A stretch of 63,909 nucleotides of DNA, the filler included, from Thelocarpon superellum (Eukaryota): assembly GCA_026025795.1 (NCBI GenBank). It is 4 parts of 4 records of this genome, joined end to end, with 100 filler letters (N's around TTAATTAATTAA, not from the genome) between each part and the next. Parts side by side here need not be neighbours in the genome. Positions count along the whole stretch, not along the records: positions 48,506 to 63,909 come from JAPEUG010000409.1; 3 more parts are not named here. One strand, given 5' to 3'. The notes below the pieces were generated by a model. It ran no database searches. It was not told where the DNA came from and saw nothing but the letters and a program-made list of their open reading frames with translations. Position 1 is the first letter of the stretch. Every line of letters begins with the position of its first letter. Made by a program: the position numbers and the translations under genes. This document shows positions 16,134-62,298 of the stretch, piece after piece.

Positions 16134-16233
16134 NNNNNNNNNNNNNNNNNNNNNNNNNNNNNNNNNNNNNNNNNNNNTTAATTAATTAANNNNNNNNNNN
16201 NNNNNNNNNNNNNNNNNNNNNNNNNNNNNNNNN
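16134..16233. other. Artificial contig linker (44 N + TTAATTAATTAA + 44 N)
   Basis: A 12-mer with stop codons in all six frames inside an N run. Identical to the linkers at 32309 and 48406. Confidence 0.97.
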
Positions 16234-32308: not shown

Positions 32309-32408
32309 NNNNNNNNNNNNNNNNNNNNNNNNNNNNNNNNNNNNNNNNNNNNTTAATTAATTAANNNNNNNNNNNNNNNNNNNNNNNNNNNNNNNNNNNN
32401 NNNNNNNN
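32309..32408. other. Artificial contig linker (44 N + TTAATTAATTAA + 44 N)
   Basis: Same structure as the other two linkers. Confidence 0.97.
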
Positions 32409-48405: not shown

Positions 48406-48505
48406 NNNNNNNNNNNNNNNNNNNNNNNNNNNNNNNNNNNNNNNNNNNNTTAATTAATTAANNNNNNNNNNNNNNNNNNNNNNNNNNNNNNNNNNNNNNN
48501 NNNNN
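48406..48505. other. Artificial contig linker (44 N + TTAATTAATTAA + 44 N)
   Basis: Same structure as the other two linkers. Confidence 0.97.
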
Positions 48506-53386: not shown

Positions 53387-54733
53387 TCACATTCGCTCCG
53401 AGAGATCCCCTCCAGCCACGGACGCGGCGTTCGAGGAGTTGCCGCTCGAGAAGCCACCGTGCAGCATGTCTTGCACGGCGACCTTGGGGATTTGCGGTGC
53501 GGGAAGCTTTCGCTGAGAACCCTCCGATCGGGACACAATGTCGCTGATCCGCAGTCCCGAGGACGGTTGACTCGTCGTGGACGAGACGTGGAAAGACGGC
53601 GGACCGTCCGCCTGCGGCTCCATCGGCGCGAGAGCAGGCGTGTGCTGCAACGACAGATGACGGATTCCCGGCAGATGCATGTCCGGCGCGCCATACGGTC
53701 GGAGGCGTGGCGAATGCGCAGGCGTGGCGAGCGGCGTGTGGTCGGGCGTCGGCGAACACGAGTCATGCGAGAAGGTCGGGGACGAAGGCGCGGTGGAGAT
53801 GGGCGAGTTGGGCTTCGACCGCTTCGACATCCGTCGCAGGTAAGGGTCGTCTTCTTCGTGCGAGTTGGACCGCGACATCGTATGGGAATAGGCATACGCC
53901 GAGAGCGACGGCATCCGACCACTGTTGTGGTGGTACGGGTGGTGCAGATGTCGGTGGTGGGCGTGGTAGGTGGGCAGCGGCTGGTTGTCTCGCTCCACCT
54001 GCGACGCCGCCGTGGCGAGAAGGTTGATGTCGAGTGGGTTCGGTCGCGACATCTCGCCCGCCGATCGAGCGTACGGTCCCAGGCCCGACGGAGCGTTGCT
54101 GCTGTAGTTGGAGTAGGAGTGCGGCGGTGACACGTTGGGCGAAGTCACCTCGGACGCCGGCGCCGAGCGAGAGATGACCTTGGGCGGCGGCGGCATCAAC
54201 GACGCCGAGAAGGAGGCTTCGCCGCCGCTGCCTGGCATGGAGCCGCCGGCCGCGCCCCCGACATGCGGGGACTTGTGACTTCGTCTTGAGTTGGGGTTGT
54301 TGTGAATGCGCGAGTGTCGAGTCAATTCGTCCGATCGGCTGAAGCGTTTGGTGCAGCCGATGAATTGGCACGCGTGCGGTTTCTCGCCCGTGTGCGTCCG
54401 AATGTGTCGAGTCTGATGCTCTAATCGGTGAAAGGCCTTGTCGCACAGCGGGCACTTGTATGGACGAGGGAGGTCCGGTCGATGTTCGCCCGAGTCCGCC
54501 TGGGCTCCACCGACGAGCGACGGGAGCATACTGACGGCAGCGGACGCCATCGGCTGCTCTTGGTCAGACGACGACGACGACGATGACGATAACGACGACG
54601 ATGTGTGGACGACGCTCGTGCCGGTGGTCGCGGGAGGATCGTGAGGGGCGAAAGAAGGGAGCTGGAGTCGGGGGGCGGAGGGTTGGGATTGGAGCAGATT
54701 TGAGAGTTCCCAGGCGGAGGAAGCGCGTTGCAT
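53387..54733 (-). CDS. creA: Carbon catabolite repressor CreA/Cre1 (two C2H2 zinc fingers), intronless, 448 aa
   Basis: [34 protein letters not shown]...[14 protein letters not shown], the conserved [36 protein letters not shown] block, and LPGIRHLSL. Confidence 0.97.
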
Positions 54734-57700: not shown

Positions 57701-59298
57701 GTCAACTTTGTGGGGACCCTTCCCGTCCACGGGTAGCGGGCAGCCACAAGGACGGCCGTAGCCTGGTCAGTCTGCCTATGCCGGCGCTGAACTGGGGCAC
57801 AGGATCTGGGGAAAGGGTCTTGGATCCGAATGGTCAGACAAGCGAGCAGCAACCCACGCTCGCTTCGGCTCGCACCCCTGCCATGTCTCTCTGGAAGGGT
57901 GGCCCGAATCCTGGAAATGCGAAGCGGTCTCCAGCGACATTACTGGCACACACCTCCCCTCCCTCTGAAGACACGAGACATCGGGATGTCGAACCCCGCT
58001 CGAGGGCGTCTTCATGTGAGAACCTGCGCCGCTTCACCCTCCGTCTGGAAGCTCAATCTTGGGCCGACCGAGCGCAAACTATCGGCCGTGGAGTCACCCC
58101 GGGCCAGCCCGGGCCCGGCGTCGTTCCAAGAATAGGACCGGCCGAGATCGATGTTGCACTCGGGTCGCTTGCGGAGGCAGGGCGACACCACACGGGCACG
58201 CCAGTCGTCGGCGGTCTGCCCTTTGTGCGCACCACCATCTGACATGGTGCTGGTTTCACCGCAGGACCTGCCACTTGGTCGTCGCACAGGAAGATCATCG
58301 ATGGACCTTCATTTATGCTGTGCCTACACCCGAGATTCATACCGTAGCTAAATCAGACATGTTCGGGGCTGGTGGAAGGAGACGGACTTGCGTCCCACTG
58401 CCATAGTCTGACGACGGCTGGTGCTGGTACTGGTACAGCGCACACGGTGCGGGCGCGCGCTTGGTGGGTTCACATGTGAAATCTCATCTTAGGCCTCCCC
58501 CAGATTGTCCTCCGACCCTGGCTACGACGTCGAAAATTCGGATCCACCTTCGTACCTCAGCGATCCCGATCCCCTTGCCGAGGATGTGAGGAGAGGAGGT
58601 AGGAGTTTCCTCACAGACCGAACCTCATCCATCCCCTGCTACTAGTGTATGGTTAATGAGAATGACTTCTTCGACGCACTGTGACTCATCATTACATCAT
58701 GCACCTGGTAGCATCGGGCGTCTGGTGCACAAGTGCCACCCTGCTGCACTCGTGGCTGAATGTGATCCACCGCCTCACCCTTTCTGCCAATTTTTGATTA
58801 CCGCAGTTGCCTCTGCAGCTTGGAAGTTGCAGGCACGCCCTGGACTAGGAACGCATCATGTTGTCCCCGCCGGCCCCGTTGCGAACATTGATTGCATCAC
58901 CTGAGTGCACCGGCATCCCCGGCTATCTGTTCCGGCGAACCCGAGGATCCTAAAACCCCAACCTCGCGTACTCCAGGTCATATTCATGACTTCCAGCATA
59001 TCGAGGCTCATTCCGACGACGAGCGAGGGGGACGAGAAGAGCAAAGGAAACTTTCAGACACTGCACCTAGCTCGCCTGATGGAGTCAAATGCAGGGAGAA
59101 TCTAGACTCGACCTCTGTCAGTCCAGTACTGTCACTAGGATTCAAAATCGACCACGTCCAACAGTCCGCCCCGTAACCATATCGCAGCTTGGCAACAGTA
59201 AACACAAAAGGACACCAGGGGCATCGGAAATGCTTGGATAGTAGCAGTTCGGAGCAATGTAGCAACTGAGAATAGATGCGTGTCGAGGTCAACATGGC

Positions 59299-59303
59299 AA
59301 AAA
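59299..59303 (-). terminator. RNA polymerase III oligo-T terminator (TTTTT) of the tRNA-Ile gene
   Basis: T5 run 3 nt downstream of the discriminator base on the minus strand. Confidence 0.75.
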
Positions 59304-59306
59304 CTT

Positions 59307-59447
59307 TGGTCCCGCGGGGGCTTGAACCCCAGACCTTCGCGTATTCGTGGTAAGCCTATTAGCACGACGCTCTGAAGGAGAATCAGTCAAACAAGTCGGT
59401 GCTAGCGGTGGGGATTATACAAACCTAACCAACTGAGCTACAGGACC
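59307..59447 (-). tRNA. tRNA-Ile(AAT) gene with two introns; exons 59447-59425, 59371-59357, 59342-59307
   Basis: Joined exons GGTCCTGTAGCTCAGTTGGTTAG-AGCGTCGTGCTAATA-ACGCGAAGGTCTGGGGTTCAAGCCCCCGCGGGACCA fold into a full cloverleaf: acceptor GGTCCTG/CGGGACC, D GCTC/GAGC, anticodon stem TCGTG/CGCGA, T stem TGGGG/CCCCG. A and B boxes are intact. Confidence 0.93.
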
Positions 59448-59610
59448 GTGTTTGTTTCCGGCACGTACCAATATATATTCTTTCTCATGAAAACCGGTGG
59501 CACTGCCACTAAAGCCGCTTTTCGAACTTGGATAACGTGTTTAATTTTGGACAGCTACTTACTCTGGCAAACTGTGGTTGGGGAGCTGTCTATCCGACGG
59601 TGATCAATTT

Positions 59611-61906
59611 TCATATCTCCCGACACCACCTCGCCACGACGGTATTCATGCCCGGCACGCTGGGTATGATCTCTTGCAAGGCGACATCGACCTTGAACAT
59701 GCGGCCTGTACGCGCCACCTCCCGAGACCCGCTGCCCCCACCAACGCCACTTGCGGCCCCGGCGGCAACGACCCCGCCGATGGCAGGTACGAGCAGCTCG
59801 TACGCCGCCAGACGTTCCCAGGCGCCGATCGCCACCTCTCGACCCCAGATCCGGGATCCGGCGCCTACAGCAGCCGCGCCCGAGGCCGATGATTGGGCCT
59901 TGACCCGCGACGCGATGATGTTGTACTCATCGTACGCCATGTTGAAGTTGCAGGTGTCCGTGTCCAGGATGATGTCCAGGCGGGCGGCGGCGATCAGAAG
60001 GGCTAATTCGAGCTCGCTGAGCCCGGCCAGCAAGTGAAGTTTGGAGTCGGGCGGGGCCAAACGGGCATCGCGGAAGTCTAGGCCGCTCAGGTAGAGATTT
60101 GGAGGGGTCAGGCTGCCAATAGGGATGAGGCAGGCCGAATAGAAGTCCGCGGCGGATTTGGATCGGTGGTAGACGGAATGTAAAAGCCGTCGGAAGACAT
60201 TGTCCTTGTTCCACAGCTCCTGTAGATCATCAGCGGAGCTCCGGTCAGTCATGGGCGGCCTACAGACCTCTATGGCCTCGTTCCACATCTCGCGTAAGCC
60301 ACTGTGATCATTGGCGAGAATTGCCTTGTTCTCTGGAGATTGATCCGTCTCGTCCGCTTCCGTCCACGTGATGGCCTGCCGGCAAATGCTCCAGAAGGAC
60401 GCCAGACTTCGTGGCAGGGGTAGATGGATGGAACGGTGGCTGAAGCGGCTCTTGACTCTCTTTTCCAAGCTCTCCACCACGTTGATCTTGGTCGTGAGAC
60501 CGACGACTGCGATGGGCGCCTTCCGAGCTTGTGCGATATCAAAGAGGTTATAGAGAAGCGTCTGTCGCGGGTGCGAGGCGAAGAGATCGAATTCGTCCAG
60601 GACAAAGACGACTGAAGTTGCGGTGCGTTCCGGATCGCCTTCCGAGAACTCCGAAGGATGCGAGAGGAGCGCCAGAAGAGAGGACAACGTGTCGGCGTAG
60701 TTGTTGGTCTGAGGGAATCAGCACCACCTCCAGGTGGATCGATCGAGCGTCGCCACGTACTTTACCTACAAAATCGTCTTCGACATTCATCTCGCGGCCG
60801 AGTTGGCGCCATATCTCTTTCAACGCCAGCCGGTCATCCGTGTGGATGAAACCATGCAACCGGATGGCATGAAAATCTCGAGCGTGCTCGATTGATAGAT
60901 CTGCGATGACTTGTTCCACCATCTGCGACCCAGGTCAGCATCCCTCATCGCGTCTCAGCGTCCACATTGGTGGTACCGTCGTCTTGCCACTGCCTCTGGC
61001 CCCGATGACCAGCATGGAATTGCCCTCTCCCGCGACAACTGTCCGTTCAACCAGATGGTGGAGCTTGCGGTACTCCTCGTCGAGGCCAAGAAGCGGCATC
61101 GGGCGTCGCCCCGTTAGCTTCTCAAGGAACGTATCTCTCATCAGGGCGACGAGATCTTTTAGGTCGTAGTCGGCGGCGAGCAGCGCGAAGCGAGCTCGGA
61201 AATGTCGAGGGTCGGCATCCGCTGCGTCTTCCGAAGCCTCGGCCGGAGCATGTTTGGTCTGCAGCTCTGCAGCGAGCTGCTGCTCCACGAGGTTTGCCTC
61301 TTCAATCGGGGCAATAGGAGACTTTCGGGGACGACCCCTCTTTCTCTTCGGGGGCGTTGGTGGATGCCCGCTGATTTCTTGGAGGCCATTGCGGAAGGGC
61401 AGTTCTCCTTGGAGCGTGGGAGAATAGACCGGGGAAACCGTAGAGACAGCTGGAGATTGCGATGTCCGGCTCGCGGCATCCGCTGATCTTGACGTGTCCG
61501 TAGGAATGTCCTTAAAGCCGAGGGAGTTCGGGCTCTCGCTGAAGACATGTCCCCCGAAGCTGACAGCCTTTTTGGGCCGGCCTCGTTTGCGTTTGATCGG
61601 TGTTAAAATGCCCCTGGGCTGTATCTCCGGCAAATTCGCAGACTCATCGGCTTGAGGTCTTGGCTCTGAGTGGTCCAATCTGGGGTGAGTTTCGGGTCCA
61701 ATCCCGAGCGGAGCTTCATCTCGATGCCTTGGCCGGGCAGGTCCAGACGCACCACGCTCCGAGGTCTCTTTGACGGCCACGGGTAGCGGGTGTTTCCGTG
61801 GCCTACCTCGTTTACGCTTGGGGGGTTCTTCGCCTGGGTTGGCGGCGTGACGCTGAGGTTGTGGACGGGAACCCTGAGCACCGGGGTGGATGTCGTCGTT
61901 GGCCAT
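59611..61906 (-). CDS. ORC4: Origin recognition complex subunit 4 with N-terminal AT-hooks; exons 61906-60977, 60922-60761, 60708-60268, 60219-59611; start uncertain
   Basis: GEGNSMLVIGARGSGKTT (Walker A), FVLDEFDLFASHPRQTLLYNLFD (Walker B), LEKRVKSRFSHR, LSELELALLIAA, and three KRKRGRP(R/K)K AT-hooks. Confidence 0.95.
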
Positions 61907-62298
61907 CAATTCCTCCGCCAGTCGCGAGGAGAGGATCAATAGAGATCACTCATGCCGCGACTTGGAAATCGAAGAGAGAACTCGCTTCGTCGCGCGATCC
62001 TCGCTCTTTATTCGAGTCGGCGGATCAGTCATGTTGATGTTGAACAGTACGGCTTAGGATTGTCATATCGCAGTGAAGGCAGGCATGAAAATTATCCGGA
62101 GCTGCACCTCGCCTCAGACGTTACTTCTGCAGCTCCGCTCATATGACGGCGACGAAGCACCTAGCCTTAAAGATCCCACGAGATGTCCACGCATCCAATC
62201 CCAGTCAAAGGTATTTCACACGTGAAGTATCAAGTCGTGGCAGGTGACGTCTCAATACCAGCGGGACGTCGTAGCCAGGAAAATTACTCATCTAACCC

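Follow-up and report, generated by a model that had tools for sequence, protein, structure and literature searches.

A Thelocarpon superellum tRNA-Ile(AAU) gene with an ordinary anticodon-loop intron and a D-arm insert bearing spliceosomal-type signals

Can a nuclear tRNA gene carry an intron of the mRNA type? Passages of a review on tRNA processing contrast tRNA introns, which are handled by an endonuclease and a ligase, with mRNA introns, which are handled by the spliceosome (PMC10275265). A tRNA-Ile gene of Thelocarpon superellum may put this division in question. Within the window, by which we mean the whole analyzed stretch of 63,909 nucleotides, the gene is interrupted by two inserts, one in the anticodon loop and one in the D-arm. 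We put the chances at about even that this ascomycete locus is a live nuclear tRNA-Ile(AAU) gene, transcribed by RNA polymerase III (Pol III) and endowed with an mRNA-type intron like that of fission-yeast U6; we infer that it is transcribed, that the spliceosome acts on it, and in which order its processing steps run. More tentatively, and with rather less than even confidence, we propose that it would be the first nuclear tRNA to need both eukaryotic RNA-splicing systems, the spliceosome acting on the D-arm intron and only then the endonuclease and ligase acting on the anticodon-loop intron.

The gene lies on the minus strand at 59307-59447 and comprises 141 nt from the 5' end of the acceptor stem to the discriminator A, as delimited by an ARAGORN call after insert removal. 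It is split into three exons of 23, 15, and 36 nt, all on the minus strand, as are the inserts between them. Exon 1 (59425-59447) contains the 5' strand of the acceptor stem, bases 8 and 9, the 5' strand of the D-stem, the D-loop, and the first base of the D-stem 3' strand. It is followed by insert 1 (intron 1; 59372-59424), which is 53 nt long, runs GTTTGT...CAG, and bears mRNA-type signals. The middle exon (59357-59371) supplies the remainder of the D-stem 3' strand, base 26, the 5' strand of the anticodon stem, and the loop as far as base 37, including the anticodon AAT. Insert 2 (intron 2; 59343-59356), the 14-nt GGCTTACCACGAAT, separates base 37 from base 38, as placed by the ARAGORN intron call and by homologues. 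Exon 3 (59307-59342) holds base 38, the 3' strand of the anticodon stem, the variable loop, the T-arm, the 3' strand of the acceptor stem, and the discriminator A.

ARAGORN returned no gene in the raw 64-kb window and none in the raw tRNA-Ile gene with both inserts in place. After deletion of insert 1, it called a tRNA-Ile(aat) with a 14-nt intron, and after deletion of inserts 1 and 2, an intron-free tRNA-Ile(aat); the cloverleaf with anticodon AAT, the mark of a nuclear tRNA-Ile(AAU) gene (Pol III type 2), is thus present in the ARAGORN call once the inserts are removed. A search of the whole window against Rfam at gathering thresholds gave no match, and at the tRNA locus there was only a chance SNORA73 match (E=1). 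The two-insert anatomy put forward in a preliminary description of this DNA was borne out, in that its coordinates and quoted sequences are exact and ARAGORN restores tRNA-Ile(aat) on insert removal; the same is true of the 15-nt middle exon bearing the anticodon AAT (59371-59357). The term "micro-exon" fits the length of 15 nt, but as a label it is nominal. Because the 14-nt intron is not spliceosomal, the downstream exon presented to a spliceosome would be the whole remaining precursor, 65 nt plus the trailer, so that a middle exon of 15 nt would be no obstacle to a fungal spliceosome.

Homologues were sought by scanning metagenomes with a pattern composed of the anticodon loop, a gap of 5-35 nt, and the start of exon 3, which yielded 13 loci (L001-L013). 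Each of these metagenomic tRNA-Ile(AAT) loci has an intron of 11-24 nt at 37/38, and the D-arm is uninterrupted in 13/13. The claim of a canonical 14-nt intron at 37/38 was therefore upheld, both by the ARAGORN intron call and by an intron at the same place in all 13 homologues, and insert 2 is an ordinary 37/38 tRNA intron. Mature sequences were compared over 74 nt for 12 of the 13 loci, L009 being excluded because it is cut by a contig end; the 12 collapse to three distinct mature tRNA-Ile(AAT) sequences. Across bases 8-48 (D-arm, anticodon arm, and variable loop), the exons of the window gene are identical to the commonest metagenomic form at 41/41 positions. Since these bases match the homologues throughout, removal of insert 1 recreates the conserved D-arm exactly. 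The acceptor and T stems differ from the commonest form, and both still pair internally. The window gene is therefore like the ordinary fungal-type tRNA-Ile(AAT) genes in its D-arm, anticodon arm, variable loop, and short 37/38 intron, and unlike them in its D-arm insert, which none of the 13 homologues has. In addition, the metagenome collection gave 0 matches to a pattern of exon 1, 40-70 nt, and the middle exon; the lack of a relative carrying insert 1 in that search is a point against reading the locus as a live gene.

Insert 1 differs in kind from insert 2. It begins with a 5' site GTTTGT (59424-59419), contains a branch motif CTGAT (59386-59382) whose branch A, at 59383, lies 11 nt before the 3' end, and continues through a pure pyrimidine run to a 3' CAG (59374-59372). 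Its GC content is 0.47, and it has no run of at least 4 T. Because AG precedes both boundaries of the insert, its junction can slide by 0, 1, or 2 bases, and GT..AG is one of three equivalent registers. In this register, insert 1 sits between bases 22 and 23, in the D-stem 3' strand, at an AG|A site. GT and AG therefore stand at boundaries that restore a functional tRNA in one of the three registers, together with a CTRAY motif at the usual distance, a YAG end, and a usual length. A further GTNNGT in the gene, GTTGGT at 59433, sits in the D-loop.

How readily would such a set of signals arise by chance? We defined the full set as GTNNGT, a CTRAY whose A stands 6-25 nt from the 3' end, and a terminal YAG. 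Over both strands of the window, 348 of 126,800 53-mers start with GT and end with AG, and a single one of the 126,800 has the full set, namely insert 1 itself. Even when all three registers are counted, the full set would arise by chance with a probability around 1e-5. We also counted the composite motif GTNNGT plus CTRAY plus YAG at lengths of 45-100, with 30 second-order Markov simulated windows as the control; two ORF-based intron finders, which proved far too permissive in GC-rich DNA, were dropped and this count was used instead. The window contains 43 composite matches, compared to a mean of 18.9 (range 11-26) in the 30 simulations. Seven of the 43 bridge two open, GC3-rich reading frames and were taken as real introns. 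They measure 48, 56, 58, 59, 61, 71, and 94 nt, and their branch A is 9-16 nt away from the 3' end. Insert 1, at 53 nt with its branch A at 11 nt, falls within both ranges. The weak point of the spliceosomal reading is the 5' site: set beside GTRNGT, the extended form in introns native to this genome, GTTTGT keeps G5 and T6 but has T at +3, where all seven frame-bridging introns have A or G. As for the origin of the insert, no further copy of it longer than 13 nt occurs within the 64-kb window, which thus gives no hint of an introner-like repeat family. A mobile element with terminal inverted repeats was considered and rejected, since only the 2-nt AG is repeated at the ends of insert 1.

Read directly from the sequence, the gene also has A and B boxes and a downstream T-run. 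The A-box-like TAGCTCAGTTGG (59440-59429, minus strand) is intact in exon 1, and the B-box-like GGTTCAAGCCC (59328-59318, minus strand) is intact in exon 3; we take both to be promoter elements on the strength of consensus sequences known in general. TTTTT, a Pol III terminator-like run on the minus strand (59299-59303), starts 4 nt past the discriminator, and the precursor itself contains no run of at least 4 T. The 60 nt upstream, in a genome whose GC content is about 0.6, include TATATAT (59471-59477, minus strand), which occupies positions -30 to -24 relative to the tRNA start. By likeness to tRNA genes of fission yeast and plants, it is a candidate upstream TATA element of a Pol III promoter.

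On the same strand, the upstream neighbor is the last exon of an ORC4 homologue (59611-60717, minus; an ORF with Pfam ORC4_C, E 8.3e-53), which ends in a stop codon (59613-59611) placed 163 nt upstream of the tRNA start. The N-terminal exon of this ORC4 gene (60938-61945, minus) encodes three KRKRGRP-type AT-hook-like motifs (Pfam AT_hook, E 3.5e-4), which recall fission-yeast Orc4, itself a bearer of AT-hooks. Elsewhere in the window, an intron-less gene at 53390-54733 (minus) encodes a CreA/Mig1-type carbon catabolite repressor with two C2H2 fingers; its atlas score to an Ascomycota cluster is 0.98. The CreA-like, ORC4, and Cdc73 genes and the intron style place the fungus in Ascomycota. The stretches at 16134-16233, 32309-32408, and 48406-48505 each consist of two 44-base N runs with 12 bases between them; they represent masked or withheld sequence and are not biology.

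Further evidence comes from variation at the locus. The DNA run X1 is probably the source of the window and is not independent of it for the sequence itself. It contains a bubble over 59319-59447 with two haplotypes, at depths of 77 and 30, which differ at 6 sites: 59349 in intron 2 and 59378, 59394, 59403, 59414, and 59417 in intron 1, the latter being intron positions 47, 31, 22, 11, and 8. Thus, 6 of 67 intron sites differ, compared to none of the 62 exon bases in the bubble (one-sided Fisher p=0.0175, on only 6 sites). There is likewise no difference at the 14 splice-signal positions (chance alone, 0.22) and none across the adjacent 250 nt of non-coding DNA (p=7e-5). Alleles, different nuclei in a mixed culture, or a duplication of very recent date could each account for the two forms; in each case they are diverging copies whose exons and signals are intact and whose introns drift. 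According to passages of a study of tRNA genes, conserved mature sequence with variable introns is the pattern of active tRNA genes, which undergo high transcription-associated mutation, and such mutation predicts variable inner flanks as well (PMC6130373). The haplotypes fit this pattern in part, because the flanks are invariant where variability is predicted. The numbers are small, and the invariant 250-nt flanks count against the mark of an active gene.

The two haplotypes of X1 extend over 59100-59737 at a depth of roughly 70:30, with a second bubble downstream of the tRNA that has variant letters at 59133, 59164, and 59189. The ORC4 coding part at 59611-60100 shows no haplotype differences in X1. 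Heterokaryosis, a mixed culture, or partial duplication may lie behind this. In three moss metagenomes (X2-X4), contigs of low depth match the ORC4 region (59738-60085) and the spacer downstream (59100-59183) with 0-1 differences, none of them spanning the tRNA introns, and this near identity points to the same or a very close fungus in those moss samples. X1 and two of the moss metagenomes (X2 and X3) further share an identical sequence that matches only the T-arm/acceptor end (59298-59335; 38 nt, 7 mismatches). This shared sequence, whose flanks are quite different, is another tRNA-like locus.

The main rival to a live gene is a disabled copy, which we regard as less likely but serious. On this view, the genome would have several tRNA-Ile(AAU) genes, and this one would have received a 53-nt insertion that is rarely or never removed, while intact copies serve the cell; reverse splicing or repair may have placed a copy of a real intron there. 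The usual presence of more than one tRNA-Ile gene in a nuclear genome favors this explanation, and the copy at 59307-59447 may be dispensable. When the four DNA runs were searched at 80% likeness, the contigs listed contained neither a joint across one of the introns nor an intron-free paralogue; exons this short may not align, and cover in X2-X4 is partial. A disabled copy would also agree with the atypical 5' site (T at +3, compared to A or G in 7/7), with the lack of insert-bearing relatives among the metagenomic loci, and with the failure of ARAGORN and Rfam to recognize the raw gene. Yet a gene that had lost its function would hardly be expected to keep 62 exon bases and 14 signal positions in both haplotypes while its introns differ at 6 of 67 sites. 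Its exons are identical over bases 8-48 to those of functional-looking homologues, its promoter-like and terminator-like elements are intact, and a random insertion would carry the full signal set with a chance of about 1e-5, all of which argue against a disabled copy.

A second explanation accepts that the precursor is spliced and changes its source. The precursor would be a Pol II read-through of the ORC4 mRNA, spliced co-transcriptionally, released by RNase P and RNase Z, and finished by the tRNA splicing endonuclease (TSEN). Splicing is normally coupled to Pol II, and the ORC4 gene, on the same strand, ends only 163 nt upstream. The spacer between ORC4 and the tRNA also holds a strong, consensus-like 5' site, GTACGT at 59468, 21 nt upstream of the tRNA start. 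That site cuts both ways: joined to the same CTGAT and CAG, it makes a 97-nt intron (59468-59372, minus), and use of this stronger site with the same 3' site would delete tRNA exon 1. As the tRNA gene moreover has Pol III-type elements of its own, we consider an ORC4 read-through improbable.

The last alternative dispenses with the spliceosome. A strict bulge-helix-bulge, that is, two 3-nt bulges with cut sites and a 4-bp helix between them, is absent from insert 1 in all three registers, the central helix having at most 2 of 4 pairs. Eukaryotic TSEN positions its cuts in the 37/38 region by measuring from the mature domain, a rule that does not cover a D-stem insert. Against these two points and a full spliceosomal signal set very unlikely by chance, removal of insert 1 by an endonuclease-ligase route, be it the tRNA splicing endonuclease or another, with GT..AG a coincidence, is highly improbable, even though the 2-nt junction ambiguity makes GT..AG just one of three registers and ectopic or multiple tRNA introns cut via a bulge-helix-bulge are known (PMC3978253, PMC4090602). 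Of the earlier proposal that two splicing machineries act on one pre-tRNA, what stands is a pair of inserts differing in kind: a canonical 37/38 intron, and an insert in the D-arm that has signals of the spliceosomal type and lacks a bulge-helix-bulge. The removal of these inserts in RNA is the part that we infer.

For a live gene with an mRNA-type intron, maturation might run as follows. RNA polymerase III would transcribe the tRNA gene by means of its A and B boxes and the TATATAT at -30, and stop at the T5 terminator. The second intron, of mRNA type, would have been acquired at some point in the D-stem 3' strand, at the AG|A site. In the nucleus, the spliceosome would remove this 53-nt intron by two transesterifications, using GTTTGT, the branch A in CTGAT, and CAG, and the D-arm would form after the removal. 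The tRNA splicing endonuclease and ligase would then excise the 14-nt intron at 37/38, and A34 would then be available for deamination to inosine.

An order with the spliceosome first and TSEN second is plausible for two reasons. The endonuclease would read the folded tRNA body, and, as in yeast, it would work in the cytoplasm, after nuclear export; in both budding and fission yeast, the tRNA splicing endonuclease is cytoplasmic and located at the mitochondrial surface. On present evidence, the order is not obligatory. Whether insert 1 is present or absent, the predicted folds contain the acceptor stem, the T-arm, and the intron-bearing anticodon stem; the D-arm alone is displaced by the insert. 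What takes its place in the predicted minimum-energy structure is an 8-bp helix in which the D-arm 5' strand, with 8 bases of the D-stem and D-loop (59436-59429), pairs with the branch-site region of the intron (59390-59383). Such pairing with exon 1 would hide the branch site and, if anything, hinder the spliceosome; it may be due to chance, or the fold may slow one of the two splicing reactions. The bases of this predicted helix are unchanged in either haplotype. Pol III transcripts also go without the cap and the Pol II coupling that normally aid splicing, and a capless, Pol II-uncoupled transcript is a point against spliceosomal removal of insert 1.

How would such a gene compare with known systems? 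Passages of one paper describe the U6 gene of S. pombe, a single Pol III-transcribed gene whose intron is removed by the spliceosome, as well as spliceosomal introns in the U1, U2, and U5 snRNA genes of Rhodotorula and in the rDNA of ascomycetes, the last after Bhattacharya et al. 2000 as cited there (PMC5855946). As far as those passages go, the window gene is like S. pombe U6 and Rhodotorula U1, U2, and U5 in that a short intron with spliceosomal signals lies in the gene of a small, structured non-coding RNA. It is unlike U6 in that the host is a tRNA and not a part of the spliceosome, and in that splicing here is deduced from sequence. Because a tRNA is not part of the spliceosome, the origin proposed for the U6 intron, reverse splicing at the active site, is not directly applicable. 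With the ascomycete rDNA introns, to judge from the same passages, it shares the placing of an mRNA-type intron in a non-coding RNA gene of an ascomycete that is not transcribed by Pol II; the difference is that rDNA is a Pol I gene and tRNA-Ile a Pol III gene. The presence of more than one intron in a tRNA gene, D-arm positions included, is described for Archaea, the red alga Cyanidioschyzon merolae, and nucleomorphs in two other papers (PMC3978253, PMC4090602). The introns described there are bulge-helix-bulge introns cut by the tRNA endonuclease, whereas insert 1 has GT, a branch site, and AG instead.

If spliced, insert 1 would extend the mRNA-type introns of non-coding, non-Pol II genes, as in U6 and rDNA, to tRNAs. 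In the literature searched, which lay largely outside subscription journals, no spliceosomal intron is reported in a tRNA gene, and the exact phrase "spliceosomal introns in tRNA" is absent. If the reading is true, this would be the first tRNA with an mRNA-type intron, subject to confirmation of the splicing in RNA. If the intron is spliced, standard tRNA finders miss interrupted genes of this type, and fungal gene counts for some anticodons may accordingly be too low. The precursor would in that case also offer a natural substrate for learning how the spliceosome handles a capless, highly structured Pol III transcript. More broadly, spliceosomal introns would be able to colonize tRNA genes and to persist in them. 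For the fungus itself, the supply of one essential decoder would depend on spliceosome activity; such a coupling of isoleucine decoding to the spliceosome would require the gene at 59307-59447 to be its only or main tRNA-Ile(AAU) gene.
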